Shown piece after piece: positions 1,205 to 63,025 of a stretch of 64,000 bases of DNA. The position numbers and the translations under genes are program-made. Numbering within the stretch: the first letter of the stretch is position 1; each line of letters starts with the position of its first letter. Source of the DNA: Nemertoderma westbladi (lineage: Eukaryota > Animalia > Xenacoelomorpha); contig JAUCBJ010003600.1 of NCBI GenBank assembly GCA_032718475.1, positions 17,125-81,124 on the forward strand, read 5' to 3'. The notes under the pieces were generated by a model that saw nothing but the letters and a program-made list of their open reading frames with translations, was not told the origin of the DNA and did not search any database.

Positions 1205-1214
1205 AAAGAAAAAC

Positions 1215-6933: not shown

Positions 6934-7839
6934 AGAATACACAATACAGATAATATGGGAATAATATCGACCAAGAACGAATTAAAATGGAAATAAATTG
7001 AAAGAAATTTATATCATTATTGTATTTACATCTGATATAAATTAATTATTTTATATCTAATTTTAGCAAACATTGCGAGCTCTCCCTATGGAAAATACTA
7101 ATAAATCTTTGTTATTATTTTTTATATAAATAGAGTTAGAAAATTCCATAAATTAAAATTAATACAAAATACTCTAAATTATTTTTTGTAACTAAATGTA
7201 ATATTCTGTAAGATACGGAATTGAACTGATGTTATTCAATTATTTGATCTGATCTTCAATGGAATAATTAGGACAGTTTGACGTTCCAACATCTGAACTT
7301 CTTTCTGTAGAGGGTTGGATTACTTTATTAGGATTTCTTTTTTGATTCGCGGTTATTCTGTAAATAAATAAATAATATAATAATATGTGATGGGATCCGA
7401 GTTGGCGTGGGATCCCGACCGGGTAAATCTCTTGTCGTGTTTCCTACGCATCGCCGTGTTTATAATGACTATGAAGGCTGAAGGCCGTAGGCTGGTAAAA
7501 TGCAAGAGTTATTGGTTTATCGTTGTTAATAATAGCTGATAAATATATAAGTACCAGTAGACAAATTTCAGCACAATCAATAGAAGATACCTCGACGGTG
7601 GTATACCGTCCAACATCCACAGTAATTAATAGCCAACTGAACACAGTTAATATTGTCCAACAGATATATGGAAACTATGGGGAAACTTATTACACAGTCC
7701 TACCTACATGGCGACTGACCAAAGGATACACGTTATACTTGCCAGCTGCCCCCCCCCCCATTTGTTGGTTTTTCCCCCACTTCTGTCACCCCATGTTCCC
7801 TCAGCCCTTGCATCACCTCATATTCCTTGGTCCTCGATC

Positions 7840-9894: not shown

Positions 9895-12775
9895 AACTCA
9901 GATGGTTTAGTGGACAGAGTTTATAGTTCCGATGGGTTAGTGGATATAGTTTATGGTTCGGATGGGTTGGTGGATAGAGTTTATGGTTCCAATGGGTTGG
10001 TGGATAGAGTTTATGGTTCCGATGGTTTGGTGGATAGAGTTTAGGGTTCCGATGTGTTGGTGGATAGAGTTTATGGCTCCGATGGGTCGGTGGATAGAGT
10101 TTATGGTTCCGATGGTTTGGTGGATAGAGTTTATGGTTCCCGATGGGTTGGTGGATAGAGGTTATGGTTCCGATGGGTTGGTGGATAGAGGTTATGGTTC
10201 CGATGGGTTGGTGGATAGAGTTTATCAGTCCGATGGGTTGGTGGATAGATTTTATGGTTCCGATGGGTTGGTGGAGAGAGTTTATGGTTCCGATGGATTG
10301 GTGAATAGAGTTTATGGTTCCGATGGGTTGGTGAATAGATTTTATGGTTTCGAAGGGTTGGTGGATAGAGTTTATGGTTCTGATGGGTTGGTGGATAGAG
10401 GTTATGGTTCCGATGGGTTGGTGGATAGAGTTTAGGGTTCCGATGTGTTGGTGGATAGAGTTTATGGCTCCGATGGGTCGGTGGATAGAGTTTATGGTTC
10501 CGATGGTTTGGTGGATAGAGTTTATGGTTCCCGATGGGTTGGTGGATAGAGGTTATGGTTCCGATGGGTTGGTGGATAGAGGTTATGGTTCCGATGGGTT
10601 GGTGGATAGAGTTTATCAGTCCGATGGGTTGGTGGATAGATTTTATGGTTCCGATGGGTTGGTGGAGAGAGTTTATGGTTCCGATGGATTGGTGAATAGA
10701 GTTTATGGTTCCGATGGGTTGGTGAATAGATTTTATGGTTTCGATGGGTTGGTGGATAGAGTTTATGGTTCTGATGGGTTGGTGGATAGAGGTTATGGTT
10801 CCGATGAATTACTGGACAGAGTTTATGAGTCCGATGGGTTGGTGGATAGAGGTTATGGTTCCGATGGGTTGGTGAATATAGTTTATGGTTCCGATGGGTT
10901 GGTGGATAGAGGTTATGGTTCCTATGGATTACTGGACAGAGTTTATGAGTCCGATGGGTTGGTGGATAGAGGTTATGGTTCCGATGGGTTGGTGAATAGA
11001 GTTTATGGTTCCGATGGGTTGGTGGATAGAGTTTATGGTTCTGATGGTTTGGTGGATAGAGGTTATGGTTCCGATGGATTACCTGACAGAGTTTATGAGT
11101 CCGATGGGTCACTGGATAGAGGTTATGGTTCCGATGGGTTGGTGAATAGAGTTTATGGTTCCGATGGGTTGGTGGATAGAGTTTATGGTTCTGATGGTTG
11201 GTGGATAGAGGTTATGGTTCCGATGGAATACTGGACAGAGTTTATGAGTCCGATGTGTTGGTGGATAGAGGTTATGGTTCCGATGGGTTGGTGAATAGAG
11301 TTTATGGTTCAGATGGGTTGGTGGATAGAGTTTATGGTTCCGATGGGTTGGTGGATAGAGTTTATGGTTCCGATGGGTTGGTGGATAGAGTTTAGGGTTC
11401 CGATGTGTTGGTGGATAGAGTTTATGGTTCCCATTGGTTAGTGGATAGAGTTTATGGTTCCGATGGGTTGGTGGATAGAGTTTATGGTTCCGATGGGTTG
11501 GTGGATAGAGTTTATGGTTCCGATGGGTTGGTGGATAGAGTTTATGGTTCCGATGGGTTGGTGGATAGAGTTTATGGTTCCGATGGGTTGGTTGATATAG
11601 TTTATGGTTCTGATGGGTTGGTTGATAGAGTTTATCGTTCCGATCGGTTGGTGGATAGAGTTTATGATTCCGATGGGTTGGTGGATAGATGTTTTGGTTC
11701 CGATGTGTTGGTGGATAAATGTTTTGGTTCCGATGTGTTGGTGGATAGAGTTTATGGTTCCCATTGGTTGGTGGATAGAGTTTATGGTTCCGATGGGTTG
11801 GTGGATAGAGTTTATGGTTCCGATGGGTTTGTGGATAGATGTTATGGTTCCGATGGGTTGGTGGATAGAGTTTATGGTTCCGATGGGTTGGTGGATAGAG
11901 TTCATGGTTCCGATGGGTTGGTGGATAGAGTTTAGGGTTCCGATGTGTTGGTGGATAGAGTTTATGGTTCCGATGGGTTGGTGGATAGAGTTTATGGTTC
12001 CGATGGGTTGGTGGATAGAGTTTAGGGTACCGATGTGTTGGTGGATAGAGTTTATGGTTCCGATGGGATGGTGGATAGAGTTTATGGTTCCGATGGGTTG
12101 GTGGATAGAGTTTAGCTTTCCGATGTGTTGGTGGATAGAGTTTATGGTTCCGATGGGTTGGTGGATAGAGTTTACGGTTCCGATGGGTTGGTGAATAGAG
12201 TTTATGGTTCCAATGGGTTGGTGGATAGAGTTTATGGTTCCGATGGGTTGGTGGATAGAGTTTATGGTTCCGATGGGTTGGTGGATAGAGTTTAGGGTTC
12301 CGATGTGTTGGTGGATAGAGTTTATGGTTCCGATGGGTTGGTGGATAGAGTTTAGGGTTTCGATGGGTTGGTGAATAGAGTTTATGGTTCCAATGGGTTG
12401 GTGGATAGAGTTTATGGTTCCAATGGTTTGGTGGATAGAGTTTATGGTTCCGATGGGTTGGTGGATAGAGTTTATGGTTCCGATGGGTTGGTGGATAGAG
12501 TTTATGGTTCCGATGGGTTGGTGGATAGAGTTTAGGGTTCCGATGTGTTGGTGGATAGAGTTTATGGTTCCGATGGGTTGGTGGATAGAGTTTAGGGTTC
12601 CGATGGGTTGGTGAATAGAGTTTATGGTTCCAATGGATTTTTTGGATAGAGTTTATGGTTCCGATGGGTTGGTTGATAGAGTTTATGGTTCCAATGGGTT
12701 GGTGGATAGAGTTTATGGTTCCGATGGGTTGGTGGATAGAGTTTTTGGTTCCGATGGGTTGGTGGATAGAGTTTG
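9895..12775. repeat. 30-bp G/T-rich minisatellite, ~95 copies
   Basis: Unit GATGGGTTGGTGGATAGAGTTTATGGTTCC. It contains an internal 391-bp block duplication (10051 vs 10442). Confidence 0.97.
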
Positions 12776-13543: not shown

Positions 13544-14389
13544 TTAGACTAAATCATCTAAATTATGTACAGCTGTAGTCAGGATATCAGCTATTTGACC
13601 CTGATTTGTGTCTCTCAGACATTGACAGAATGTAATAAAATCGTTGAATGACCTTCTAATTATCGCGTTGACCAGTTCATTATTCTTTGCCAATGTGGAT
13701 TCTTTACTATTGATTGATTCAGCTATAGAATCCCTAAACACTTGTTTCCTACAAAGTAATTTTATTACCAAGTTTGGTTCGATTCTATTAACTAAAACAA
13801 ACTTATATTTAGTTAGTATCAACGGAAACTTTTTATCATCATCTGTTGTTTTATCCTCTAAAATATATACTATATGAGTTTGATATGTTTCCTTTAATCC
13901 TTCAATAAATATTCCGTAATTATTTTCTGTACCCCATTTTATTGCCTCCAATAAAGTCTTTATTTTACTGAATACATTTGGTTTCGAGTTAATTATAGAT
14001 AAAACATCCCGAGACAAAGTTCGCTTAGCTTCTAAGAAAATTATAAGTTCCAATATTTCTAGTTTATCTAGAAGTTCATTCTCCTTAGACGCTATTTTCT
14101 TCCAATTTGAACTTAAATCACCTGTATATTTTTCTCTTATTAAGTTGCTTTCCATATGTTTATGAAACTTACATTTGACTTTATTATGTGAAATATTTTC
14201 ATCGATTTCAATAAAATGGAAACAAATTTCTTCTCTACAGTTAATTTCATTGTGCTGTTCGCATTTTGAATTACATTGACATTTTAAATGAAAACTAAAC
14301 GAAATGTTTTTTATTCGAATTTGTTTAAGGAATTCCTGCAATGAATTATTAAGATAACACTTCACTTTATTGACCAGCTGTGGATCCGG
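13544..14389 (-). pseudogene. Duplicated ROCO 3' module: COR tail (Cys-rich) + two CARD-like domains; paralog remnant or alternative terminal exon
   Basis: Open frame PDPQLVNKVKCYLNNSL...KCQCNSKCEQH...CFHF is collinear with PDPDIVNKVNHFINTSL...KCECNAKCDQH...CFHF of the main ORF, followed by two CARD-like helical repeats. No ATG; the frame is closed at 14416 inside the VNTR. Confidence 0.75.
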
Positions 14390-14390
14390 G

Positions 14391-15565
14391 TAATGTCTAT
14401 AACAGCAGCCTCTCTACCTTGATTGGTAACGTCTATAACAGCAGACTCTCTAGCTTCATTGGTAATGTCTATAACAGCAGCCCCTCTACCTTGATTGATA
14501 TCGTCTATTACAGCAGCCTCTCCACCTTCATTGGTAATGTCTATAACAGCAGCCCCTCTACCTTGATTGGTATCGTCTATTACAGCAGCCTTATCTACCT
14601 TGATTGGTAATGTCTATAACAGCAGCCTCTCTACCTTGATTGGTAACGTCTATAACAGCAGCCTCTCTACGTTGATTGGTAACGTTTATAACAGCAGCAT
14701 CTTCACCTTGATTGGTAAAGTCTATAACCCCAGCAGCCTCTCCACCGGTTGATTGGTAACATCTATAACAACAGCTACATTATATTGATTGGCAATGTCT
14801 ATAACAGCAGCCTCTCCACCGGTTGATTGGTAACATCTATAACAACAGCTACATTACATTAATTGGCAATGTCTATAACAGCAGCCCCTCTACCTTGATT
14901 GGTATCGTCTATTACAGCAGCCTCTCTACGTTGATTGGTAGCGTTTATAACAGCAGCCTCTTCACCTTGATTGGTAAAGTCTATAACCCCAGCAGCCTCT
15001 CCACCGGTTGATTGGTAACATCTATAACAACAGCTACATTACATTAATTGGCAATGTCTATCTATAACAGCAGCCTCTCCACCGGTTGATTGGTAACATC
15101 TATAACAACAGCTACATTACATTGATTGGCAATGTCTATAACAGCAGCCTCTCCACCGGTGGATTGGTAACGTTTATAACAGCAGTCTCTCTACCTTGAT
15201 TGGTAACGTCTATAACAGCAGCCTCTTCACCTTCATTGGTAATGTCTATAACAGCAGCCTCTTCACCTTCATTGGTGATGTCTATAACAGCACCCCCTCT
15301 ACCTTGATTGGCAATGTCTATAACAGCAGCCTCTCTACCTCGATTGGTAATGTCTATAACAGCAGCTTCTCTACCTCGATTGGTGATGTCTATAACAGCA
15401 CCCCCTCTACCTTGATTGGCAATGTCTATAACAGCAGACTCTCCACCTGTTGATTGGTAACATCTATAACAACAGCTACATTACATTGATTGGCAATGTC
15501 TATAACAGCAGCCTCTCCACCGGTTGATTGGTAACGTCTATAACCCCAGCGGCCTCTCCACCTTG
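14391..15565. repeat. ~36-bp VNTR (36-41 bp variants) overlapping the ROCO stop codon
   Basis: Unit TTGATTGGTAATGTCTATAACAGCAGCCTCTCTACC. On the minus strand it reads GREAAVIDITNQ, matching the last ~35 aa of the ROCO ORF. Confidence 0.95.
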
Positions 15566-18500
15566 ATTAGTATTATCTCTATCAGCAACTTCATCAGGTT
15601 GATCGGTAATGTCTACAATATCCGCATCATAACCTTTGGTAGCTTCCTCTAGAGTATCAGCTAAATGATGTTGGTTGGTGACACGAAGACATTTACAAAA
15701 AGATAGAAAATCCTTGTAAGATCTTTTCATTACTGCGTTTATAAGTACAACATTCTTACTATCTATCGATTCTTTACATTCTATTATTTCTATGATAGAT
15801 TTACTTATAACTTTTCTGATAACAAGAAGTTGTGCAACAAATTTAGTTTGTTCTAAATTTTTCATTAACATATATTTATACTTTGTTAGAATATCAGGGA
15901 ACATTTGGTCTTCCATTTTGATTTTTTCATGCAAAATTTCAACCAAAAGCGGTTGATTGGTTACATATAATGCTTCAATAAATACTTTGTAATTATTTTC
16001 TGATCCCCATTTTATTGACTCCAACAAAATCTTATTCTTACTCATCAAATTCGACTTAGATTCAATAACAGCTAAAACTTCCTTTGATATAGCCCCCTTA
16101 CTTGCTAAGTATACAAGTAACTCTGAGATTTCCAGTCTATCAATAAGGTCATCTTGGTTAGTTGTAATGTTTAACCAATGTGAGCTAAATCTCCCAACAA
16201 CAGGGAATTTTCCACTAATAAATCGACTTCTAACAGTGTTATTAAATTGACATTCAACAAAATCATTTGATAAAATATCAGCCAGTTTAACAAAGTGAAA
16301 ACACCCTTCTTCATTGCAGTCAAGTAATCTATGTTGATCGCATTTAGCATTACATTCACATTTTATTTCGAACTCAAATGAAATATTTTTAAATCTCATT
16401 TGGGTAATAATTTCCTTCAATGAAGTATTAATAAAGTGATTTACTTTATTAACAATATCCGGATCTGGTGCAAGTTTACTTTCAGTTTGTTCATCGCCCG
16501 AACTAAACATCTCAGATCTAACTACCTGAACTTTAATCCAATTTAATGAAATAGAAGATCTTTCCAAAATTACCTGATGATTAAAATCTAAAAATATTTG
16601 AGCAACTCTGTGGTAAAGTTTAGGTTGAATTACTCTATTACCTACAATGTAGGACAAATCAATAGTTCTCTTAATTAAACGGTAGTACAATCCTTGCGGT
16701 AAGAAACTCTTGAATGTAATATAAAATTCAACTTTACATTGTCTTGGTGTGAATGGAGTATATCTAACAGATTTAAGGCGGCAAGGTACATAATAAGCCA
16801 ACTTTACATCATCTTGCAATGTTCTTTCGGTTTTTGGTAAAACTCGTTCACATAGTAAATCAAAACGTTCTAGAATATTCAACATAAATTGTTTTTTATC
16901 AAGAACGTCTTCCCACAGATAATCAAGGAGTTCTTCATGTAATATACCATTGTTGTCCAGGTCCTTCCAGAACGTAAAATGTTGTTTCTTTATTTTGTCT
17001 TTTACAGTTATTATTTTGGTAAACATTCCACTCAACCATTCTGGGCTCAGTATAACAGTATCCCTTAGAGATTCATCATCAAAGTAAATTATTTTACCCA
17101 TATCGTGGTAAAATTCTAACATTGTTTTCAAACCAATGTTATCCATTTCTACATCAATATCCTTTAATTTAATCTCTAGCAAGTCAATGTCAATATAAAC
17201 TTTACCATCCGTTATTAATTGAGACACAAGTTGGTCAAATTTTAGATATTGCAAAGGTATTTCCTCCTTAAAATTTGCCATTTCGTTGACAATATCGGCC
17301 TGTAAATTTTCAAGTCCTTTCTCTCCACCATATATAATTTCTCTATTATTCTCTATAGCAATGTAATCTTTAATTAAATTATCTGTATATGAAGATTTAC
17401 CCAAATGGGTCTTAATCTTTTCAAATATTTTACTTGCTATTACAGATTGAGTTGCAGGATCAGCATGTAAGCTGCCTTTATGAGTTCCAACTACAAAAAC
17501 AGGTGGACAAGAATTTATTTCTAGTTTTGTACCAAATGAATAAATATTTTTTAACCAAAATTCAATAAACTCAATATTCTTAATCTCACCGAAAACAAAC
17601 TCATTAATATTGTTTTCATCTGATCTGAAAATAATATCAGGAGTTTTTTCAAGATTTTCCAAGAGATTAAATACAATTATATAAATAGCACGTCTACTCA
17701 AAAATATCTGATGGGTTGTGTAATAAATACATTGGCCACCAAAATCGACTATCTGTAGAGAAAAGCGACTGTCTTCCTCATTAAATTTAGCCAGAATATC
17801 TTGAGGTTTACCAGATAACAATATATCCTCTACTCCCTTTGTGATGTTTTCAGGAATATCATTTTCCATAGCTTCCCTTATGGGTTGCCTAGAAAGATTT
17901 TCTTCAATAGGTTTACTTTCATTCTCACCAGTTAATAAAGTTGTACTAGATTTTTTATTTATCCACAAAGTATCCTTTTGAACTTTCTCAGCACCATAAC
18001 TTGAAGTTGTAGTAGCAATCTTAGGTTGATCATCAGTAGAAGATGAAGGTGTTGCAACTGAGGGTGTCGCAATACCAATACCCATTGCCGAAGTTCCAGA
18101 AATATCAGACTCATCACCTGCAACTTGTTTTCTTTCTAGAACTGTTTTTGCAATTTCCTTAGTAATGACGACATCAACAGCTGTCTCAAGCTCTTCTTTC
18201 ATGTTGGTCCAATCTCTGTTTTGTTCGGTATTTATAATACAGTTAGCAGATGAGTCAATACCATCAGTTATTGGTTCATTTATATCAAACGGTTGACCAA
18301 TAAGGGACTTCTTCAAACTAGTTTTACCAGCCCTCTCTTGTCCCACTAACATTAACCGGGTTTTCAATATCCATGTAGTCCCTTTAGAAAGAGCTGCTTT
18401 ATATGCAGCCAATGCTTCTGGGCCTCTCGCCAGTATCTCTATCGGCAGTTTTTGTTCTTTAATATAATTAATTAAAAATTTTGGAAGTTTCAGTGTATTA

Positions 18501-18867
18501 AATCCACTTATATTCATAATCATAAGTCCCATGTCTCTGAATTTATTAACAATTTCAATTGTTAAAATTTCATTTAAACCCCAAATACTAACCAGATTCT
18601 GGGTTGTTAGCTCAGAAATATCTGCATCCAGTCTAAAGTAAAGTTCTTTCTCTTTATCTGAAAGAACATCAACAGTAGATATAATTATATCAGTTATCTT
18701 ACCCTGGAGTGGTTTATTTATGGGACCAACCCATCCAATATACTCAACAATTTCCTTTACTTCTTCAGTTTTCTCCAATATACTTTCCACCTGTTTGATA
18801 CTTTTCTTTCTTTCAGTTTGACCTTCACGGAACGTATCAATTACTGTAATTGTGCCGCCATTATCTC
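15500..18867 (-). CDS. ROCO-family exon: winged-helix-like + Roc GTPase + COR + two CARD-like domains
   Basis: PIEILARGPEALAAYKAAL pre-Roc helix; P-loop LMLVGQERAGKTSL; switch I TDGID; G3 DFGGQCIYYTTHQIFLS; G4 VGTHKG; COR motifs FYHDMGKIIYF, VILSPEWL, YYVPCRL, LPQGLYYRL; two C-terminal CARD-like repeats. Acceptor TTATCCTTTATACAG ends at 18868. Confidence 0.92.
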
Positions 18868-19203
18868 CTGTATAAAGGATAATTATCATTAAGCTGTCTT
18901 TCCACTATGTTGACATCCAATAATACGATGAAAAATTCAGGGTTGGAGCAAGTTAAATTATCTAAAATCTCGAGGTAATTCATTCATATTTTCAGAACTA
19001 ACTTAAACATAGTTTCAACAACAGTATCAAAACTTTAACCAATCTCGATTTATTAGGTAGGGTACAAATGTAGTATTTGGGCGCTATGGAGGTATTTATA
19101 TAGTAATAAAAAGAACACCAATTTGTTTGTAAAGGACAGACTTATTGCAATATTGTCGATGTTATTAACTACTTTGGTGGGTTTAGAATGGAGTATACGC
19201 ATA

Positions 19204-20082
19204 AGCAAATTACAAATATAATTATAAATATATTTCGTTAAGGCTCTCCAATATGCACCTACGGTCCCTATACGTTTCCCTGCCTATGTCTTCTATTTTT
19301 TTGGTTATTTATTATGTTTTTAGTGCAATTTTCAACAGATAACAAGTCGTACGTTACGTTAGTCAATTCTGCAATTTATATTAGAATTTGTACTTTATTG
19401 ATAATGAAAGCGCTGAGCTACCGCAATATATTTGTAATTATATTTGAAATTTGATTAATAATATTTAACTTGCTCCAACCCAGAATCTTTCATCGAATAT
19501 ATCTGACATCTCAAACTTTCTTATAGTTAATCCAAAATTACGTATTATAGCAAGGATCTTTCTTTCAGTTTGATCTTTACTGAACGTATCAATTACTGTA
19601 ATTGTGCCGCCATTATCTCCTGTATAAAGTATAATTATCGTTAAGCTGTCTTTCCTCTGAGTTGACATCCAGTATTAGAGTACGATGAAAAATTCTGGGT
19701 TGGAGCAAATTAATTTTTATTAATCAAATTACAAATATAATTATAAATATAATTCGTTAGGCTCTCCAGTATGCACCTATGGTCCCTATACGTTTCCCTG
19801 CCTATGTCTTCTGTTTTTTGGTTACAACTTTTATTCTGTGCAATTCAGTGCAATTTTCAACAGATATAAAGTCGTACATTACGTTAAGTCAATTCTGCAA
19901 TTTATATTAGAATTTGTACTTTATTGATAATGATAGCGCTGAGCTACCGAAATATATTTGTAATTATATTTGAAATTTGATTAATAATATTTAACTTGCT
20001 CCAAACCAGAATCTTTCATCGAATATATCTGACATCTCAAACTTTCTTATAGTTAATCCAAAATTACGTATTATAGCAAGGA
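19204..20082. repeat. Local ~360-bp direct duplication (19204-19560 vs 19724-20082)
   Basis: Both copies run from CAAATTACAAATATAATTATAAAT to TTACGTATTATAGCAAGGAT with few differences. Confidence 0.9.
19465..19619 (-). CDS. Duplicated acceptor + start of the ROCO exon; candidate short alternative terminal exon
   Basis: 19556-19710 duplicates 18805-18955, including TTTATACAG|GAGATAATGGCGGC. It reads GDNGGTITVIDTFSKDQTERK and then unrelated sequence to a stop at 19465. Confidence 0.4.
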
Positions 20083-20085
20083 TAA

Positions 20086-20385
20086 ACGGACAATAGGCGG
20101 GACAATAGGCGGGGCAATAGGCGGGACAATAGGCGGGACAATAGGCGGGACAATAGGCGGGACAATAGGCGGGACAATAGGTGGGACAATAGGCGGGACA
20201 ATAGGCGGGACAAAAGGCGGGGCAATAGGCGGGACAATAGACGGGACAATAGGCAGGACAATAGGCCGGACAATAGGTGGGACAATAGGCGGAACATTAG
20301 GTGGGACAATAGGCGGGATAATAGGCGGGACAATAGGCGGGACAATAGGCGGGACAATAGGCGGGACAATAGGCGGGACAATAGG
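20086..20385. repeat. 12-bp minisatellite (GGCGGGACAATA)n, ~25 copies
   Basis: Directly visible; it produces the PPIV/SRLL pseudo-ORFs. Confidence 0.97.
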
Positions 20386-20461
20386 ATGGTTAAAATTATA
20401 AAAATATGTTTTTTGCAATATTTCTGAGCCGAAGTATGAAGCTGAAATACAATATCTCACT

Positions 20462-22263
20462 AATACTGTATACTGTTAATATAAACAAGTACACCCGCAA
20501 TACTGTATACTGTTAATATAAACAACTACCCGCGATACTGTATACTGTTAATATAAACAACTACCCGCGATACTATACTGGTAATATAAACAACTACCCG
20601 CGATACTGTATACTGTTAATATAAACAACTACCCGCGATAATGTATACTGGTAATATAAACAACTACCCGCGGTACTGTATACTGTTAATATAAACAACT
20701 ACCCGCGATACTGTATACTGTTAATATGAACAACTACCCATGATACTGTATACTGTTAATATAAACAACTACCCGCGATATTGTATACTGTTAATAAACA
20801 ACTACCCGCGATACTGTATACTGTTAATAAAAACAACTACCCGCGATACTGTATACTGTTAATATAAACAACTACCCGCGATAGTGTATACTGTTAATAT
20901 AAACAACTACCCGCGATACTGTATACTGTTACTAAAAAAAAAACTACCCGCGATACTGTATACTGTTAATATAAACAACTACCCGCGATACTGTATACTG
21001 TTAATATAAACAACTACCCGCGATACTGTTAATATAAACAACTACCCGCGATACTGTATACTATTAATATAAACAACTACCCGCGATATTGTATACTGTT
21101 AATATAAACAACTACCCGCGATACTGTATACTGTTAATATAAACAACTACCCGCGATACTATACTGGTAATATAAACAACTACCCGCGATACTGTATACT
21201 GTTAATATAAACAACTACCCGCGATATTGTATACTGTTAATAAACAACTACCCGCGATACTGTATACTGTTAATAAAAACAACTACCCGCGATACTGTAT
21301 ACTGTTAATATAAACAACTACCCGCGATAGCGTATACTGTTAATATAAACAACTACCCGCGATACTGTATACTGTTACTAAAAAAAAAACTACCCGCGAT
21401 ACTGTATATTGTTAATATAAACAACTACCCGCGATACTGTTAATATAAACAACTACCCGCGATACTGTATACTATTAATATAAACAACTACCCGCGATAT
21501 TGTATACTGTTAATATAAACAACTACCCGCGATACTGTATACTGTTAATATAAACAACTACCCGCGATACTATACTGGTAATATAAACAACTACCCGCGA
21601 TACTGTATACAGTTAATATAAACAACTACCCGCGATATTGTATACTGTTAATAAACAACTACCCGCGATACTGTATACTGTTAATAAAAACAACTACCCG
21701 CGATACTGTATACTGTTAATAAAAACAACTACCCGCGATACTGTATACTGTTAATATAAACAACTACCCGCGATGATATTGATATTGATATTGATTTATT
21801 AGTGACGGGACACATAATAGATAATATTTAAGTTGGTATAGACCGTTAGCAACCATACAATTGTTATAGATACAGTACGAGATATTTTTGTTATGAAATT
21901 AAATCAGTATGGTATGAAAAATATATGAACAGTACATCTTACGCGAGTTATATCGATAAAATTGTCACTTAATGGGATAGCCACATGAGGCGCACCTCGT
22001 TTCCATGTGGGTCCCCGATACTGTATACTGTTAATATAAACAACTACCCGCGATACTATATACTGTTAATATAAACAACTACCCGCGATACTGTATACTG
22101 TTAATATAAACAACTACCCGCGATACTGTATACTGTTAATATAAACAACTACCCGCGATACTGTATACTGTTAATATAAACAACTACCCGCGATATTGTA
22201 TACTGTTAATATAAACAACTACCCGCGATACTGTATACTGTTAATATAAACAACTACCCGCGA
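20462..22263. repeat. 35-bp minisatellite interrupted by an insertion at ~21775-22015
   Basis: Unit GATACTGTATACTGTTAATATAAACAACTACCCGC. Confidence 0.97.
21775..22015 (-). mobile_element. 5'-truncated LINE 3' end (CR1/L2-like) inserted in the minisatellite
   Basis: Minus strand has a stem-loop (CCACATG...CATGTGG) and ends AATAAA + (TCAATA)3 tail. Flanked by a CGAT duplication of the repeat unit. Confidence 0.6.
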
Positions 22264-22264
22264 G

Positions 22265-22505
22265 ATGTGGTCGAGAATAGTCTCCAACACTCCGCTAGCT
22301 CCAACAGTAGCACCCAAACCTACATACGATACTTATTGTGTTATACGATTTGTACCAACAGTCTCCAAAGCTATAAAAACAATCCTTGATCAGATTGGAT
22401 TGCACACATTTAATTTCAAACGTAGCACTCGGTCAAATAAATTGGACCAGACGAACTACCAATTTAAACTTCGGTCTAATAGCAGTCAATAGTGCTGGTT
22501 TACAA
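22265..22505 (+). mobile_element. Possible Penelope-like element fragment (RT-to-GIY-YIG linker)
   Basis: YCVIRFVPTVSKAIKTILDQIGLHTFNFK...VLVYK resembles the PLE linker consensus (lPyv..vSe.I.riL...gi...FKp...vVYkI). Confidence 0.4.
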
Positions 22506-22982
22506 GGCTGAGATACTGTAACTCCCTCTTGAAATGACTCCCCAATCGTCTCAGCCTAGGCTGAGAACACTCCCCACCACCAGTTATGACTCCCCTTAGG
22601 CTGAGATGACTCCCCTTAGGCTGATATGACTCCCCTTAGGCGGAGATGACTCCCCTTAGGCTGAGATGACTCCCCTTTGGCTGAGATGACTCCCCTTAGG
22701 CTGAGATGAAGCCCCTCAGGCTGAGATGACTCCCCTTAGGCTGATATGACTCCCCTAATTGAGTTATAATTCATATCCGTACCTGTGCTATTTCCGTATA
22801 TTGCAAAAATTAAACTGTTACCTATGTTAATGAGTTGTCGTTTATTGTTTTGGTTAGAAAAGCCCGCCACTGTAACCTGCTCCTTTCCGTTAATTAAGAA
22901 ATCTAGGAAGAAAACTGGGTAGTGTTCTCAGCCTAGGCTGAGAAGACTGGGGAGTCATATTTGGTGGGGAGTTATCTCAGCC
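22506..22982. mobile_element. MITE-like element with ~65-bp inverted repeats and an internal 20-bp tandem repeat
   Basis: GGCTGAGATA...TGACTCCCCA..TCTCAGCCTAGGCTGAGAACACT occurs at the left end and in reverse complement at the right end. (AGGCTGAGATGACTCCCCTT)n at 22590-22757. Confidence 0.75.
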
Positions 22983-24109
22983 AGTTACATCGGACGAACT
23001 TAAAATTTTTTTTACAAAGTTTAAGTTGACTCGATATGAAACTGTTTCGAAAATTTCTACAAATTTACTCCGATTTAAAGAGGGTTGGGAAAGAAGGTTA
23101 AACTCATGCAGGCAATATGTAAAATAGACTGTAATGCCTGAACTGACCATAATTACATTGGGAAACTTAAACGAAAACATGTAAAGCGCCACAATGAACA
23201 TTATTTATGGAGAGTGTTAGAGTTTTTACTGACAGTGTTGGTGGTGGGCTTAAAATTTGAATTTAAATAATGGTAATTGGTAAATAAAAAGTATCGATTT
23301 ACAGTTATATGCGGTCTTATATAATGGCTATAAACGTTGTGAAATAACACAACACTGTATCGACAATGGCCACTTATTCGACGAATATAACGTGTCAGTT
23401 CTAGACTCCCATATATAGATCCAACCGATTTGGCAACTCACAAAACTATTCAAATACGAACTAATTTATATACATATATTTTTATAATAATTTATTTTAC
23501 CAGGAATAAAACGACATTAAAAATTGTACTTTCTTTGATGAGTGACACTTATATACTTATATGAACTTACATTAATATTTTTCCACATTCACTGTTCTGT
23601 ACACTCGTAATTTTTGAAAAAGACACTTACTCTGCTATAAACAGTACAATAACACTTATTGTAACATGAGAAAACCTACCAAATCCAATGATACATTTCT
23701 CTGTTTGTGGGAAAGTATGTTTGTTTGTTGTGGTGGGAAATTTCAAAAAGGTCAGGGTATCATATTCTGTATCACTACCCGTCTAAATACTATAGAGAAA
23801 AGTTGTCTTTGCCTGACCCCGTAAGAGATCAGAAATATTGCCATAAAGTTGTAAATAGTAAATGTGGCTGTAAATAAAATAGTCATATTCCAAACAGTAT
23901 GAGTCAAAAATGAGCTCCCTACTGCACGATAATTTAACTCGCAGAAATAAGCTGTTTCCTTATTAAAAATTGTATTAGTTCAACTCAGAGCAGAGGACCC
24001 CATGTAACCGGAATTTTCAATTTTACATTTAAATTTTTACTTTAGCGTTTTATAAAAGTGTCTTTTACGAAATTGTTGCCTTCGTTTCGTTGTCATTTTT
24101 CTCATCAAT

Positions 24110-24515
24110 AGTGATTTATTTTTTATATTTGAAAGTTTGCATTGTGAGGATTCCAAATATGCATAAATGTCTAAATTTCGTTGATAAACAAATGAGATAT
24201 GGGCGTTCTAAGATTGCAAGAAGTATCTTTCATTATAATATACCAGTTATTTATGTATATGTGTAGCTATGGATACATAAATATAATAATATATAATAAA
24301 TAGGATAAATAAATACGATTTTTATCATAAAAATGATAAAAATAATAACACGTTCTAGAATGTTGTGTTTATATTAACTATAATAAATGACTTCCAGCGA
24401 ATGATAATTTATCACAATCTTTGAACGCCAGTATTATATCACAGCTGTTTCTCAACGAAACTCAAAATATATTTATATTTGGAATCCTTACAACTCAAGC
24501 TTTCTAAAAATATGC
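24110..24515. mobile_element. Degenerate non-autonomous DNA transposon (imperfect inverted repeats)
   Basis: GAAAGTTTGCATTGTGAGGATTCCAAATAT...TTTCGTTGATAAACA (24131-24190) pairs with TGTTTCTCAACGAAA...ATATTTGGAATCCTTACAACTCAAGCTTTC (24446-24504). Confidence 0.5.
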
Positions 24516-25356
24516 CATTGTGGCTAATAATATGAGGAATGGCCGTGATGCAATGAGGGCGATATCGCAAACGTTAAACGTATATAAATTCAAAATAGAA
24601 AATTATACGTAGCTCCATGTTAAATAAAGTATGATACAGATTGTATAAAAATAAGGTGGGGTGTGGGTTAGGGGTGTCCCTTCTTATCTAAAATGACACT
24701 TTATTACGGGCAAGGTGTTATATAATATAATACACCTTGTTGTATGCCTAAGTAATTGGACTGTGTGGCAGACCTAAAAATGAAAGTTTTTATTATACAT
24801 TACCGGTTGTATTCTCTTACAGTTACTTTACTGCATTGCAGTACCGGTACGCATATTGGTACCATTATAGTTTGTTTATTTAAGTAGAACTACCAGTTGG
24901 TTAAAACGCCATTGATACAAACCAATAACAAACACCCTAACATATAACTGAATACATAATATTATTAAGCTAATTGCTGGTTTATTAGTTTATTTTTATG
25001 TTACATTTACCGAAACCAAACCGCACCTAAAACTATCCGACTACAGGGACTATGTTGTAATGGTCTATATTCTGATATTAGACTAATTTAAATTTCGTTC
25101 CCATGGTACCCAATATTGGCAGGAGGCAGTGAAGGTAATGTTCAGTTAATCCGCATCATATCGGTAAGTAAATTATTAATTAAATAAAATAAAATTAAAT
25201 ACCGGTAATAGGCCCCTAATAATTAATGTAATTAATTCATTTAAGTGTTATAATGCTTATTACTTACTATGGTACGTGGTACGGTACTGAATTAGACCCT
25301 AGGCCTAATTAATTAATTTAACGTGTTTTAATAAAGGAGGTCTATTAATTAATTAC

Positions 25357-26232
25357 CTGTAATAATATGCCGGTCATCTTTACAGAAATCGACAGCACGG
25401 ATGCGGTTCCCCGTTCCTTCAATCCGGTTGATAACCTCCCCAGTTACAGAATTTAGAATATAAATCAACCCGGTGTTCCTCCCAACAGCAGCGATTCTGG
25501 ATCCGTTCGGACTCAATACGATCGTCAGGACCTCAGGAGTTGCTTCCTGTTTCCACAAGGTCTCCCCTGAACCAACAACGAAGCGATGGATCCCTCCTCC
25601 CTCATCTACCGACACCACTGACTCCCCATCCGGACCCCAACCCAGACTGTAGAACCTCCCACTGTACCCCCGGTATTGATACAACATCTCCCGGGTTCCG
25701 GTCAACCAAACTTTTACTGTTCTATCCTCCGAACAGCTGGCCAACCGGGACCCGTTCGAGTCGAACCGAATACAGTAAACCGACCCAGAATGCCCCACCC
25801 AGTTCGTAACCTCATAGTTCCCCCCAGTTACTGATATAATAGAAATCCCCCCGTTGGACCCACAAGTTACAATGACGTCCCGGTTGGAGGGATTTATATC
25901 TATTCCCAACCTCCATTCATGCTCCCCCCCACCAACCACTAACTTCCTCCCCGGTACCTCCACTACGACCCTCCAACCGGTCGCTTCCCGCTCCCAGACA
26001 GTCACCAACCCCCTCCAACCGGTTCCCGAGGCAACGCGGTTCCCGTCCGTAGAAACCGCGACTGTTTCGTAGTAATCGTTAGAACCTCCGGATCCCGGTA
26101 GATCTTCCTTTTTGTAGAGAGTTGTTGAATTTATGATACAGGGGAGGTTGTGAGACACAAAGACAACCTCCTCGGTACCCGGGATCATTTTGAGTTCCCG
26201 GATCGGCGCCATTGTTAGGGGGATTATTGAAT
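25357..26232 (-). CDS. WD40 beta-propeller exon (7 blades, the last one incomplete); predicted 5' coding exon of the ROCO gene
   Basis: GHSGSVYCIRFDSNGSRLASCSEDRTVKVW and other WD repeats. Acceptor TTTATTTTATCTTTTAG ends at 26233, ATG at 26212, donor CAG|GTAATT at 25357/25356 just before the apparent stop. Confidence 0.88.
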
Positions 26233-26908
26233 CTAAAAGATAAAATAAAGTAAATTGCCGCTAAATTGCTAAAGTACTAATAAGTATTACAGCGCTAGTA
26301 ATTGTTATTAGATAGTCAGCGTAGCCAGTAATTATTTACTAGCTGTTTTTATTTATTCGGTTTGTATAAACGATCAATATAATATTTAATTTATTTTTAA
26401 TGTTCCAGTAAAACAAAGTGTTCTAGAACCTTAATTGATAACGAACTTGTTCTAGGAGATTAAAAAGTAGCGACAACTAGTTAGTTTAAATAATTTAGGT
26501 TTTTTTTAAATAAAATGTTCTAGAACAAAATAAATATGTTCTAGAACATGAATATTGAACATCCAGTATTTGTGCTACATACCGTAGTTAGTATAAGGTT
26601 TGGTATTTAATAAATATACGGAAGGAAACCTTTTCAAACTAAAATTTATTTAGTTATTTTGCAAATAAGTTTTGCAAGTAATTTGACCAAAAATTCATTC
26701 AAAAACTTAAAAGTTATTGCAATTTTAGTGTCTGAAAGACGAACTCCATAACGGAACTCAATAACCACTATTGGTTTATGTAGTTAAGCGGCTCTCTAGT
26801 TACTTAATAAATATCCGAGAACACTAAATTATTTAACATTGAGTTAAGGCAGCCATCAGGAGTTGGGGAGTTCAATAACAAAAAAGTAACAATATAATTA
26901 CGTATTAC

Positions 26909-28437
26909 TACTACTATTACTACTAGGATCGGCATGCTGCATTGCAGCTGCATTTTTAAGAATGCTGTGCCGGCTTGTCAACAAAATTGCACCGCCACAA
27001 CTCCCTATCACCCATGACATTTGCTAGATCATCCGCATCTTCAAGGCCAGTGTCCTTTAAGATGCGTCTCAAGAAAGTCATGGGCTGTCCACTATGCTTA
27101 TTCACTCCATGAGGCTGCCAAAGTACAAGATTATGCACTGGCTGGTCCTCACGGCGAAAGCAATGTCCTGCAAAGCGGAGACGATTTTGTTCTAGTGTCA
27201 AGCTTGGGGGAACCAATGAGACACCTCCAATGTTATATAGTGTCTGGTTGGAGATGTGTGCATTGTACTTGGCACAATTAACCCGGCGTAGCATTCTTGT
27301 GAATGTGCCATCCAGAAATTTGGTGTCCTCAGCAGTTAGAGCCCAGCATGGACTCCCATAGAGGAGTACTGGAACTACTGCTGCTCTAAATAATCGGACC
27401 TTAAGTTTTCGATTAATTCTCGGTGACTTCCAAATCCTGGAAAGCCTATTCAAGGCTGCCCGTGCCTTTCCCTTACGTATTCAAAGGTCCTCACCTGACT
27501 TCCGGATCCATGATCCCAGGTAACAGAAGTCGTCCACATGCTCAAGCATACCATCCTTTGAGTTATGCTCATCCGATCAGAGACTTGCTGAGGACTTTCA
27601 AAGTTAACTGTCAGAATTTTGGTCTTTCTGGAGTTAATAAAAAGACCAACACTAGAAGCAGCATTTTCTAATGAGCTGAGGAGCCGTTGGGCTCCCTCTA
27701 ATGATTCTGAGAGTACTCATAAGTCATCAGCAAAGTCTAGATCAGTTAGGCACTTGGCAGGATTTCCTCGACTTCTGGAGCCAGTAGGTGGAGTTATCAT
27801 CACCCCATCATCATTATGATGATCTAAGGACATGCGTAGAACATAGTCAACCACAATAATGAACAAGAATGGTGCAAGTGTGTCTCCTTGGGGGACGCCC
27901 CATAACACTTCAAATGGTTCTGTGTCACCGTCAACAGTAGACACAAATGTTGTCGAACCATCGTATACTGATCTGATTGCTGCAATAATTTCATACGGAA
28001 TCCCATATAATGAAAGTATGCTGAACATACGTGAGCGAGAGACTGAATCAAATTCCTTGAAGAAGTCAACAAAGATAACAGCCAGATGCCTGTCTTTCTT
28101 TTTTGATAATTCTTCAATTATCCTTCTAAGTGCCAAAATGGGCTCCATGGTCCCACGACCTTTACGGAACCCATTCTGATTTCCACGGAGCAGTCTCTCA
28201 ATGGGATCCTTGATGCGATTTAATAGAATCTTATTGTATAGCTTTGCAGCAATCGAGATCAATGAGATTCCCCGAAAAGAACCATAGAGTGTTAGGTTGC
28301 CCTTCTTGGGAACTACTGGCACCAACTTATTTGTTTTCATTTCTTGTGGGACTCTTGTTGTGGGGCGAGCCACGAAGTTGGCGGAGCCTTAGCGAATTGA
28401 CACTGTTAGGGGGTGGGTCAATTTATGCAAATAGTTG

Positions 28438-28469
<32 letters not shown>

Positions 28470-29105
28470 GTCGTTGTCGTCGTCGTTACGATTTTGACAT
28501 GCTAATAACTTTGTCGGATTTAAAGCTGCCAAGTTGAAAATTTGTAGGTATCAATATGAGCAAAAGTTGAGATTTTTGAGAGACTTTCAGACACCATCAG
28601 TGCAATGGTCTCCCGCTAGAGGGCCACATGTCTAAACATTAAATGCCCTCCCATTTCTTTGCTTTTAATCCGTTTAAGCTGAAACTTGGCAGATATGTAT
28701 TAGACCATTAGCTGTGACTTTCAAAGGAGGCGAATCCATCTGCAGTTCTCCAGTCTGCCGCTAGAGGGCCAACGTGACAACGACAACTATTTGCATAAAT
28801 TGACCCACCCCCTAACAGTGTCAATTCGCTAAGGCTTCGCCAACTTCGTGCTGCGCGAAGTCCCCACTTCGTGTACGGTACATGTCTACTATGATGGGAT
28901 AGATGAGCTTTAAACACTCAGGTATTTTAAAGACCTCAGGGGGAACACCATCTACTCCACTGGCACGATTGGTCTTAATGCTCTTTGCAGCAGCCTTCAC
29001 TTCTGCAAAGGAGATATCGCCGATGGGAATATCTGGGAGTACAGACTCAGACACTTTTACTTCTATAAAGTTATCAGGCAATACCCTGTCATTATTGAGG
29101 AGCGT
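26909..29105 (-). mobile_element. 5'-truncated RTE-clade LINE (RT + C-terminus), frameshifted, with 12-bp TSD
   Basis: RT motifs KASGVDG-like RASGVDGVP, PKKGNL, FRGISL, QNGFRKGR, FVDFFKEFDSV, GVPQGDTLAPFLF, FADDL; C-terminal LLYGSPCW and RLRFAGH. (TAG/TAA)n tail at 26909-26925. TSD ATTACGTATTAC at 26897-26908 and 29106-29117. Confidence 0.92.
28357..28869. mobile_element. ~510-bp MITE/HINE-like element nested in the LINE RT
   Basis: ~80-bp inverted repeats (GTGGGG..CACGAAGTTGGCG.AGCCTTAGCGAATTGACACTGTTAGGGGGTGGGTCAATTTATGCAAATAGTTGTCG), an internal (GTC)n tract and insertion at TT. Removing it restores MYRTR|RVPQE. Confidence 0.88.
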
Positions 29106-29108
29106 ATT

Positions 29109-29240
29109 ACGTATTACATGGGAAAAAAGTGGAACATTTCTTTTCAATATTCTCTCGACCCTTTATTAACCTCGCTGACGCGGTAAATAAAATGCCTCGA
29201 GAATAGTGAAAAAAAGTTCTACTTTTTCTCCCATGTAATA
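29109..29240. repeat. Imperfect ~130-bp palindrome
   Basis: TATTACATGGGAAAAAAGTGGAAC...TATTCTCTCGA pairs with TCGAGAATA...GTTCTACTTTTTCTCCCATGTAATA. Confidence 0.75.
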
Positions 29241-31383
29241 AATAATTATTATTTGTTGTATATAAGTCACTTTTTTAGTCAAAGTCGTTTGTCAAGTTTG
29301 ACATAAAAATAGCACTTTTTCTGCCAACACAAAAAGTAATGTTTCCATGACATTAATTATAATATTGCATTTAAATAGATTAAATAGATAATTTCTATAA
29401 TAATAGCTAGTTTTTGCTTATTTTATTATAAATGTTCTAGAACAAGTGTTGGTTATCAATTTTGATAAATATTTTTGTTCTTGAACACATTTTTTTTCTA
29501 GAACATTTTTAGGAAAAAAAATACCATACTACTGTCAGAAGGTCAAATATTTGTTCTAGAATAAAAACCTCATGATAAAAGCCTATTTATATGAAAAAAA
29601 TTGGTTAAACTACGGGTACCCAAGGTGTTATAGTAATGGCCGTATTTAACTAACAAACCATCAGGGCATGAATGAATAAAGCAAAATAAAACCCAATGAA
29701 CCCTCACAAAGAAGCTCACAAACTAGGGCGCTAATCCTGTAGTAACAATCAGGACGCACCTCCCGAACCTCCCTTATTTGGCTTAGCCTAATCACACCGC
29801 ACAATTTTTAGCTAGGCGCCTACACTTCACCACTTACCCCTGCTGCCCTGTTATCAGTCACAATTGACCTCATAACTTGACACCTGGTAGTAAATGCAAA
29901 GGGTAACAAAGTCAACTGTGCCCCTTTTTTGGGCCCCAATGTAAACACCAAGCAACTAAATAAAGGTAATGCGGTTAATCTCCCCTATTTTAAAACAAAT
30001 ACAACGCTTACTGCAGTGGCTGGCCTGGTACAATAGTTCAACTTCCCTGATTTTTGTTAGCTAACGCATCTCAGACTTTCCCCCTTTCACATTCCATAGG
30101 CCTGCGTCGGGCCTAGATGATCCCTACTCCATATCACAGGGATTCACCGCCTTCAAGGTTGCAAGGTACGACAGCACGGTCTGACGGTAGGCTCTGCACG
30201 GCACTGACCGCGGACTAGGTTTTAAAAGTCTGTATTATTGATCAGCACATTGCAGAATATTAATATGTTTAGAGTTAAATTAAATTTAAATTGTATAAGC
30301 AGTCAGGCAGCACCGGACCGGTACATATTCCAGTACAGCAGTACACAAGTACAGCAGCACGGTACAGAATTCAGAATTTTAGAGTTAAAGAGTACAACTG
30401 TACAAGTATTGTGACTTATGCACATAGAATGAATCATATGCCCGCCTGGCCTAATGCAAGACTGGCGTCCAATAGAAATGTTGCAAATGGCACCTTTTTA
30501 AATATATTTTTTGGTGGGTTGTTTAAATAATACTTTCCTAATGTTATTTGTAGGTATCGTTGCACACAGTTTAGGTATATTATACAGTAGATTTTAGATT
30601 TCTTACGACAATATGACTGACCATAATATATTATAAAATATCAAAATTTTCTTGGTGCGTACCTAAAGATAACTAAGCTAATCTAATGCCTTTCGATAAG
30701 AATATTACAATGGCGTGTACTCTCGCCAACACTCGTGGTATATTTACTTTTTCAAGAGATACTTAAATAAGCCCAATCCAACGTCATGTTCCTGTGTTTT
30801 CACTCAACATATCCATTCAAGATGGCGTCCATTCATTGGCAATATCCAATCTACTTATGCTAATGAGTTCTTTACTATAGTCACTGCGTACAGGCGCATT
30901 GCATTGTTACCTTGCTAGCCATAGCCATCCATTATTATTACATTGACACAACGTTCTTTAATACAACCCCACAGAGTTCATAGAGAGTTCACAGACAGTT
31001 GTTCGCGCATACCATCTCAATCAGGCCTACGCGACCGTAGCCTACTTGTTTCAGTTTACATTCAGTGGGCTTTATTTATACAAAGGCAACGGCCAGTGTC
31101 ATTTCATTCAATAACAATACTTCTGTGTTACTTACCGTAGGTAGTTGTTACGTCGGATTACAATAATTAATTATCCGTTCGCAATCAAATATTATATTAA
31201 AGTGTTTCGGGACGACGCCATCCTTTGTTATTGCAAGGACTATTAATTCATTCAAAGCAAAGGTAATTTATTTATTATAATCCCGTATATAATTATTACG
31301 TAGCTAGACTTACTATAAGAAGGCTGAACTTATTAATTAACTTATTATTTAAATTCATTTACTCAGGTTTACTCAATTATTTT

Positions 31384-31530
31384 GGCGCTAATCTTCTGGT
31401 AGACTCGACCGGCCAGAAGCTGAAACTGTCTGACTTTGGTAGTACGGCAGCCCGTCTGCAGTCGCAACAAACGTTCGGTGGGGAATTCCAGGGTCAACTA
31501 TTGGGCACCATCGCATTTATGGCTCCAGAA
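31384..31530 (+). pseudogene. MAP3K1: Isolated MAP3K1/MEKK1-like kinase exon (subdomains VIb-VIII), copy 1
   Basis: [49 protein letters not shown]|gtaagt closely matches the MEKK1 segment [24 protein letters not shown]...[17 protein letters not shown]. The expected acceptor reads TTTTG rather than TTTAG. Confidence 0.85.
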
Positions 31531-32732
31531 GTAAGTTGTAGGGAATTCAGTAGTCACTCAGTCAATTCAGTAGAACCCTCACTGACAACTAAACTAAAAA
31601 TTAAAAAGTATGTAAGACAATCACCAAACTTATTTCATAAGAAAAATTACAAATCGAAATGATATATTGGCTTTCTATCCACATAACCTGTTAGTAAATG
31701 GGCCGTACGGCGCTATGTAATCACAACGCCATCTGATTACGATGCCATTTTATATGAAATCGCTTTAAACAGTAACTTCCATTGAGTTTCAATACGATCT
31801 ATTAACATATTTATAATGCTGAAATGTGTAGCTTTTAAATAAGCTAAAAATCGTTAAATTCCGTTAATTAGAACGCGACTTACACTTGTTTTTATAAAGA
31901 ACAATATTTATTTATCCATTAATTTCACTTTTTTTACGAAATTAATTAATTCTTGACTTCACCCCCCCCCCCCCCCCCCCCCCATCCCAGTTGTTGCTGA
32001 CCAATAAGAACTCAAGGATTGTTATATTGCCGTAGCCCCTCCGCTATAGACGATACAGAGAGTTAAACTTATGAAATCATAATAAACAACATTCATTGTG
32101 TTGGAGAGATTCATTTACGGTCTGGATCAATTCAATTACAAGTCGCTTATAAGAAAGTTTGATGTTCTGGATATGACGACGGCCGTTTAATAAAACTGTT
32201 GTAGAGGTTCCGATAATATTTCTAGCTCTTAGTTTTGGGAAGATATTTATAAATTATATTGTGTAAATTATACGCAATATAAATATGTTTTAAAACTATA
32301 AGTTAAGATACTATTACTATTCGTTTGTACTAATTAATTGATCTATCTGAATTATTGTTAATATTTTTTTTAGGACAGACTACATTGAACGCCGCATGAT
32401 GATGAACAACGCCGCTAATACTCCACACACTGCCTAGGGATGGGTTTCTACCATGTTGAAAAATCAATGTGTATTGGTCACTCGCGATTGATAATTTATA
32501 TTAATTAGAACTAATTAATTAATTATGGACACAATAATGGTGATTTAACTGTTTTTAACTGAACTGATATTAAGTTATATAACTGTGTGTTTCAAATATT
32601 TGGTTTATATCAGTTGTTGACATTACAAATAATTATTGATTCTTATCCAAGTTACATAACTGTATTTTTTCGAATTTATCTCAAAGACGTTTTGTTTGAA
32701 CCCCAATATCTTCATAAGAACAAAATATATTT

Positions 32733-33355: not shown

Positions 33356-41130
<7,775 letters not shown>

Positions 41131-44550: not shown

Positions 44551-52325
<7,775 letters not shown>

Positions 52326-57109: not shown

Positions 57110-63025
<5,916 letters not shown>

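Follow-up and report, generated by a model that had tools for sequence, protein, structure and literature searches.

A predicted WD40-Roc-COR-CARD-CARD protein of the ROCO family in the xenacoelomorph Nemertoderma westbladi

The stretch of DNA analysed here (the window) comprises 64,000 nucleotides from Nemertoderma westbladi (assembly GCA_032718475.1, contig JAUCBJ010003600.1, positions 17,125 to 81,124 of the forward strand). Its minus strand carries two long open reading frames (ORFs) in the ORF list, a WD40 frame (25349-26260, 303 codons) and a ROCO frame (15500-18904, 1134 codons), separated by 6.5 kb of repeats. A donor at 25357/25356 and an acceptor at 18868/18867 are both in phase 1. 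Joining the two exons at these coordinates removes a 6489-bp intron; the resulting frame counts 1407 codons from the ATG at 26212, and its only stop is the terminal one. An earlier note on this DNA had proposed this spliced gene, and its coordinates, splice letters, phase, intron length and 1407-aa frame were all exact on recheck. The WD40 exon (25357-26232, 876 nt) is symmetric (phase 1-1) and encodes blades 1-6 and strands a-b of blade 7. It is bordered by an acceptor AG at 26234-26233 and a donor GT at 25356-25355, with the ATG at 26212-26210. The predicted intron (18868-25356) contains tandem arrays with units of 12, 35 and 20 bp, besides a local duplication. No credible Pfam domain was found in intron ORFs of at least 45 aa, and the Pro-rich ORF 20074-20475 and similar intron ORFs were rejected as genes, being translated 12-bp array. 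Coding exon 2 (15500-18867) runs for 1121 codons past the split codon to the stop at 15502-15500. Because a stop is expected about every 12 codons at the local base composition, a frame open over 1121 codons is not due to chance. On balance, we interpret the locus as one gene whose predicted splicing unites WD40 and Roc-COR-CARD-CARD in a single cytosolic chain, likely an innate-immune or cell-death receptor. We place more confidence in the join itself: sequence and a folding model indicate that 25357 to 18867 is quite probably the splice in use.

The WD40 frame matches Pfam WD40 with E 2e-21. Seven blade starts, assigned by eye, are spaced 41-53 aa apart, and blade 7 breaks off after strand b. 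The Roc region (17321-18448, minus strand), delimited by Pfam, alignment and a motif census, consists of a pre-Roc helix (PxEILARG) followed by a Roc GTPase with a long acidic, Ser/Thr-rich insert. It scores 45.2 bits with Pfam Roc, against a cut-off of 27. Its G1 motif (GQERAGKTS, at 18343) and G3 motif (DFGGQ, at 17746) both agree with those of its relatives. COR (16196-17266, minus) begins with COR-A directly after Roc (48.8 bits, cut-off 35.3, E 9e-13). There follows a COR-B-like region with a Pfam E-value of only 0.11, which is alignable to relatives and has a Cys/His cluster in common with them. Two CARDs close the protein, CARD 1 at 15920-16177 (34.8 bits) and CARD 2 at 15650-15913 (28.3 bits), both on the minus strand. 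Each exceeds the curated cut-off of 23.9 bits on its own, so that Pfam upholds the WD40, Roc, COR and tandem CARD assignments of the earlier note. When the CARD pair was compared with Protein Data Bank (PDB) sequences, the sole match was a designed protein (E 0.13). Pfam found no NB-ARC or NACHT ATPase in either exon or in 104 short ORFs (3700-33000), and no NHR, Death or TIR domain in either exon; only the core is related to the neuralized subfamily. A single-sequence AlphaFold model of exon 2 was poor, with a predicted local distance difference test (pLDDT) value of 31.7.

The junction was tested against all 1127 AG sites in the interval that starts 40 nt beyond the donor and ends at position 3700, using WD40 profiles built solely from 74 long WD40 homologues of the WD40 exon. 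With a local hidden Markov model the predicted join scored 14.7 bits, tied for first place with a site at 19620; the third site scored 14.5, so discrimination was poor. A 12-column position-specific scoring matrix (PSSM), which demands an open frame and thereby retains 598 of the 1127 sites, separated them better. The join again shared first place with 19620, at 4.4 bits (z = 4.0); the third site scored 1.9 and the others -5.0 or less. The absolute score is modest, the protein's own blades spanning -17 to +24 on the same matrix. Unspliced read-through from the WD40 exon into the intron meets a stop immediately. Finally, ESMFold2 was given two separate chains, one from the WD40 exon and one comprising residues 1-40 of exon 2, together with three controls. 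The model places exon-2 residues 1-13 against strand b of blade 7, adjoining blade 1, with a score of 0.62, compared with 0.02 for the best control. Among microbial pairs, 51 of the 78 solved and 2 of the 108 mismatched attained the mark set for this score; among eukaryotic pairs, 39 of the 65 solved and 2 of the 126 mismatched did so. The benchmark is one without peptides. Runs had at least 69% of contacts in common, with pLDDT values of 43-46 for the partner and 84-85 for the WD40 chain. Because the halves of a split domain can pass through their likeness to solved propellers, the docking is evidence of fit and not of splicing. The segment so placed (18830-18867, minus; residues 286-298 of the joined protein) is the candidate strand c of blade 7, identified by its PSSM rank and paired by the model with propeller residues 287-291. 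The join had been said to complete a seventh blade. PSSM and ESMFold2 agree that exon 2 would supply strand c to the seven blade starts, but a closing strand d was not recognised in blade 7.

The acceptor at 19620 arose by duplication. BLASTN self-comparison and alignments show a local duplication of the form A-B / A-x-B (18805-20083, minus), in which 19721-20083 matches 19202-19557 at 93% and 19557-19716 matches 18805-18959 at 89%. Within it (19465-19620, minus) lie a duplicate acceptor, ending with the G at 19620, and a second copy of the opening 63 nt of exon 2. The exon copy is identical to the start of exon 2 at 60 of 63 positions, its first 38 nt being unchanged, and the intronic flank at 82 of 92. 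The 7-11% divergence between the copies led us to reject an assembly artefact. Use of the 19620 acceptor would close blade 7 and meet a stop 39 codons on, giving a 336-aa propeller-only product; a possible donor at 19580 would instead define a 39-nt in-frame cassette. The junction letters are alike for 38 bases, and the transcript probe suggested earlier for the junction therefore cannot separate the two acceptors. The sequence suggests that the 19620 acceptor may divert part of the transcripts to the propeller-only form.

The 3′ end of the gene is also unusual. A 36-bp tandem array of 32 copies (14389-15572, minus) begins in frame within the tail of the protein, and frame-shifted units with stops terminate the exon-2 ORF. 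Beyond the array lies a second, diverged COR-tail-CARD-CARD frame (13544-14389, minus), open over 281 codons. Its CARDs score 19.3 and 27.6 bits, and it is 46% identical to the first module over 281 aa, with a non-synonymous divergence (dN) of 0.40 and a synonymous divergence (dS) of 0.98. The dN/dS ratio of about 0.41 indicates apparent purifying selection, yet the module is separated from exon 2 by the array. An ancestor or allele with four CARDs is possible. At the 5′ end, an acceptor judged good precedes the WD40 exon at 26233, and the N-terminus may therefore be longer. No non-transposon Pfam domain was detected in the 104 ORFs of at least 45 aa between 3700 and 33000; any upstream exon would therefore be short, non-coding or unrecognised.

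These features admit other accounts of the gene. The two exons could be separate genes or fragments, with the WD40 exon splicing elsewhere and the ROCO frame starting at ATG 18889 or 18532, or in another upstream exon. Their composition differs sharply: G+C content at third codon positions (GC3) is 0.57 in the WD40 exon and 0.24 in exon 2, and the observed/expected CpG ratio is 0.93 and 0.51, respectively. Moreover, a WD40 profile matched none of the 261 listed relatives, and none of the 74 long WD40 homologues carries Roc-COR. However, invertebrate genes typically have a CpG-rich first exon and a CpG-depleted body, which could explain the gap in composition. In addition, the propeller needs the opening 12 codons of exon 2 to be complete, and apart from the duplicate none of the other AG sites tested as far as 3700 serves equally well. 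We regard separate genes as very improbable. Splicing could instead be rerouted, the WD40 exon joining mainly or only to 19620 and yielding a free 336-aa propeller, with the full-length protein a minor form or the gene starting to decay. The 19620 site is met first, differs by one base in the pyrimidine tract and keeps a branch-like CTTAAC. The 38 unchanged exon bases and an AATAAA at 19399, 68 nt past the stop of the copy, point the same way, as does the severing of a second CARD module by the 3′ array. Yet exon 2 is still fully open over its 1121 codons, and the copy has three amino-acid changes past the strand and no strong downstream donor. With the pooled intronic rate as background, 38 nt would stay unchanged with P = 0.12, and with the local rate P is 0.013; AATAAA is frequent in the intron, at 2.3 per kb. 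We regard such rerouting as rather unlikely. The real protein could also exceed 1407 aa, through an unseen upstream N-terminal exon, through the second module reached by an allele or by splicing, which would bring the CARDs to four, or through both. The good acceptor and symmetric phase of the WD40 exon would suit this account, and so would a second module that is open, has a low dN/dS and lies in the genomic frame of exon 2. Against it stand the lack of a non-transposon Pfam domain in the 104 short ORFs, array stops in every path as assembled and, in a frame and splice scan, the lack of a strong phase-matched donor-acceptor pair; the frame match has a chance of 1 in 3. A longer protein seems unlikely, and the 1407-aa product is the form considered below.

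Between the propeller and Roc lies a region (18455-18703, minus; residues ~341-423 of the joined protein) that could be an orphan NB-ARC-type helical-domain tail with a winged helix. Its best pairwise score among the stored proteins P0001-P0339, 67, comes from a stretch of 80 residues aligned collinearly with the part of P0125, a TIR-NB-ARC-WD40-like protein, that follows the ATPase. A profile of three such regions, which we take to be winged helices from the usual NB-ARC layout, gives 8.4 bits to the candidate, compared with a maximum of 6.1 in 1000 shuffles. The region has no Pfam or NCBIfam family, matches none of 72 candidate homologues at E 10 or below, and finds only a chance S100 match among PDB sequences. 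Its single-sequence AlphaFold model has a pLDDT of 36.6, and Foldseek returned nothing at E 0.001 or below, which with so poor a model is uninformative. The winged helix of the earlier note thus gains a profile that beats its shuffles but finds no family, PDB or homologue match. The assignment is weakly supported, and we hold it somewhat more probable than not.

The relatives of the protein place it in a known family. A homologue search gave 154 matches, of which 120 were listed, and another gave 5583 representatives at E 0.001 or below, with 150 listed; 24, 40 and 8 selected proteins were then scanned with Pfam. Homology runs from the pre-Roc PxEILARG helix to the end of COR. The closest cores among the matches listed, with 29-36% identity and E-values as low as 1e-126, belong to neuralized-Roc-COR-Death-TIR proteins from deuterostomes and spiralians. 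In two quick trees the Nemertoderma protein, on a long branch, groups with this clade, with support of 99 and 93 in the Shimodaira-Hasegawa-like approximate likelihood ratio test, a position that points to a bilaterian invertebrate. Among the selected relatives, Pfam found neuralized, NHL, ankyrin, FN3, NACHT, DED, Macro, HEPN, SH2, KH, TAZ and Bcl-2 at the N-terminus, and Death, TIR, CARD, DED, caspase, HEPN, GT4, trypsin and kinase at the C-terminus. CARD occurs in 5 of the 40 proteins of one scan (3 of them C-terminal) and in none of the 24 of another. By alignment and domain content, the core is that of a large family of invertebrate proteins with exchangeable ends, of the general form X-Roc-COR-Y. 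The 74 long proteins found with the WD40 exon are generic WD40 proteins, mostly bacterial or fungal, with 22-36% identity. Domain shuffling onto an ancient invertebrate Roc-COR core is the likely origin of the gene. Other members of the family show NACHT-Roc-COR (P0212), Bcl-2-Roc-COR-caspase (P0237), NACHT-Roc-COR-trypsin (P0248), Roc-COR-caspase (P0217) and caspase-Roc-COR-Death (P0335) arrangements.

One relative comes close to the complete layout. In the freshwater mussel Sinanodonta woodiana, KAL3889163.1 (P0300) carries Roc-COR-CARD-CARD behind a likely NHL propeller and aligns with the Nemertoderma protein from the pre-Roc helix through both CARDs (24% identity). Domain order and C-terminal tandem CARDs are the same in both, whereas P0300 lacks the winged-helix linker and has the likely NHL propeller in place of WD40. 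Its N-terminus has no Pfam match itself and is homologous to the NHL-matching region of P0272 (E 5e-27), not to WD40; modules of this type also occur with HEPN, TIR or Death-Death ends. In a quick tree its core groups apart, within a clade made up mostly of molluscs, and the propeller-Roc-COR-CARD-CARD layout therefore probably arose twice, the two layouts being convergent. In Branchiostoma floridae P0314 (Roc-COR-CARD) the CARD is C-terminal, as in the Nemertoderma protein. The Atlas was queried with the homologues P0004 and P0300. It contains a Porifera cluster with COR, Roc and CARD, the last on 26% of its 85 members, and, from bacteria, clusters that combine WD40 with Roc (94 and 68 members, scores 0.84 and 0.78), one of which also has TIR_2. 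These clusters give domain content only and serve as leads.

Comparison with known systems defines what is new. The closest cores, those of the neuralized-Roc-COR-Death-TIR proteins (Saccoglossus 'neuralized PATS1', Strongylocentrotus LOC755988, Ptychodera, Branchiostoma and molluscs), have the PxEILARG helix, the Roc insert, a degenerate G4 and the COR-B Cys/His cluster in common with the Nemertoderma protein. The latter differs by having WD40 and a possible winged helix in place of NHR, and CARD-CARD in place of Death-TIR. APAF-1, with its CARD-NB-ARC-WD40 layout, and the NLRs (STAND proteins) resemble it in their WD40 sensor, CARD effector and possibly the NB-ARC-type winged helix. Relative to APAF-1, however, it has no STAND ATPase, the order is reversed, there is one propeller rather than two, and a dimer switch would take the place of the ring. 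The description APAF-1-like therefore holds as an analogy of logic but not as family membership. By sequence, the gene is a member of the ROCO family and not of the APAF-1/NLR family. If the splice is used, a death-fold effector (two CARDs) and a repeat sensor (WD40) lie in one chain. The reading as sensor, switch and effector is supported as a prediction, with domains and order taken from profiles.

Published accounts contain several of these elements. Roc-COR-Death-TIR and neuralized forms are known from anemones and molluscs (PMC5094078, PMC9334734). Trichoplax has at least 17 ROCO genes, with CARD, death, TPR and LRR among their domains (Civiero et al. 2014, PMC4104024); WD40 does not occur in the text or figure legend of that paper. 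Like the Porifera cluster, these are kinase-less Roc-COR proteins flanked by CARD or death domains and repeat sensors (TPR, LRR), as in the Nemertoderma protein. Brown-algal ROCO proteins have been proposed as immune receptors, and WD40 and other repeats are frequent in ROCO N-terminal regions (PMC11378527). In bacteria the AP-GTPase (Roc) displaces the STAND NTPase, between an N-terminal repeat sensor and variable C-terminal effectors (Kaur et al. 2021, PMC8195603). LRR-AP-GTPase-COR-effector proteins, with at least 24 effector domains, are interpreted there as counter-invader systems. They have the same repeat sensor, GTPase switch and variable effector as the Nemertoderma protein but use LRR sensors, and TIR, caspase or GT4 effectors instead of tandem CARDs. 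The AP-GTPase is strictly paired with COR (PMC7159879), a dimerisation device, and GTP monomerises CtRoco via an LRR-Roc hinge (PMC6337361; PMC11052575). A literature search, mostly of papers outside subscription, yielded no description of WD40-Roc-COR-CARD. The claim of a new architecture therefore stands for the WD40 version, absent from the 261 listed relatives, but must be narrowed: Roc-COR with CARD and the substitution of Roc for STAND are already in print, and the bivalve P0300 shares the layout with its likely NHL propeller.

A mechanism can be proposed from these parts. The closed seven-blade propeller would bind a microbial or damage ligand, or keep the protein shut. A change there could be relayed through the coiled, possibly winged-helix linker to Roc, much as through the LRR-Roc hinge of CtRoco, and the GTP/GDP cycle would shift the COR-mediated balance between monomer and dimer. 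The signalling state would gather four CARDs and, through homotypic contacts, seed the assembly of a CARD adaptor or CARD-caspase, as tandem-CARD receptors do. The result would be a dimer-based CARD seed, not an APAF-1 ring. A heptameric apoptosome ring is not expected because the protein has no AAA+/STAND ATPase. By analogy, the receptor is likely GTP-switched and CARD-clustering, and not an apoptosome. It would add a WD40 sensor, and perhaps a STAND-derived winged helix, to a little-studied invertebrate Roc-COR family with swappable sensors and effectors. The likely separate bivalve origin suggests that the propeller-Roc-COR-CARD-CARD layout is repeatedly favoured. A kinase-less ROCO protein with a CARD read-out would also offer a simple test of the signalling nucleotide state, still debated for LRRK2, and the duplicate acceptor a cheap test case for a built-in decoy isoform. 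A bolder scenario, which we consider improbable, is that an APAF-1-type receptor lost its ATPase and kept a winged-helix latch grafted between WD40 and Roc-COR, with the duplicate acceptor adding a propeller decoy that sets a threshold.

The role of the protein might also lie elsewhere. Built as predicted, it could be a non-immune scaffold in trafficking, the cytoskeleton or developmental signalling, with the CARDs as interaction modules only. Characterised ROCO proteins work in diverse cellular processes (PMC6337361, PMC11378527), and the spread of the closest clade across deuterostomes and spiralians fits a conserved signalling role. However, the C-termini swapped onto the core are mostly death or immune effectors, and the Nemertoderma copy lies on a long branch with unusual ends, making a scaffold decidedly unlikely. 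Other observations count against a GTP-switched immune receptor built from these two exons. The junction is predicted from genomic sequence and a folding model, and the 19620 acceptor is nearly identical to that at 18867 and nearer to the donor. In the pairwise winged-helix test two unrelated ROCO regions scored 65 and 62, against 67 for the candidate, and passed the same shuffles; when whole proteins were searched, the winged-helix profile gave the candidate no significant score (E 1.5, rank 5 of 262). The Roc G4 motif is THKG, without the guanine-specifying Asp; yet just 5 of the 31 closest relatives have this residue, and 26 lack it. A Roc with THKG may still bind GTP. No ligand, partner or caspase gene was seen within the window, and the available literature gave no function for any member of this invertebrate Roc-COR family. 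With these points taken into account, we retain the receptor reading at the strength stated at the outset.

The remainder of the window is rich in repeats and mobile elements. Broken pieces of a non-LTR retrotransposon reverse transcriptase (26956-29162, minus; RVT_1 E 5e-21, DUF6451), interrupted by another insertion, lie upstream of the WD40 exon, and a similar-looking piece at ~7400-8760 (minus) has no Pfam match. At one end of the window a Peptidase_C5 (adenovirus-type protease) match below the cut-off (E 0.01) neighbours two long ORFs for which neither Pfam nor PHROGs gave a match; the ORFs of this region are 2-1201 (plus), 1194-1640 (plus) and 1943-3697 (minus). We take the region to resemble part of a Polinton/Maverick element. 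A kinase exon, which we presume to be MAP3K1-like (Pfam Pkinase E 6e-6), occurs in three identical copies on the plus strand (31267-31659, 42460-42852 and 53655-54047), each seemingly without a canonical AG at the expected acceptor. The copies lie in 11.2-kb tandem units that are 99.96% identical, the product of either a very recent duplication or an assembly artefact. Large 30-bp, 6/48-bp and 13/19-bp tandem arrays yield long spurious ORFs at 9901-12774, 33359-41107, 44554-52302 and 57108-62971.

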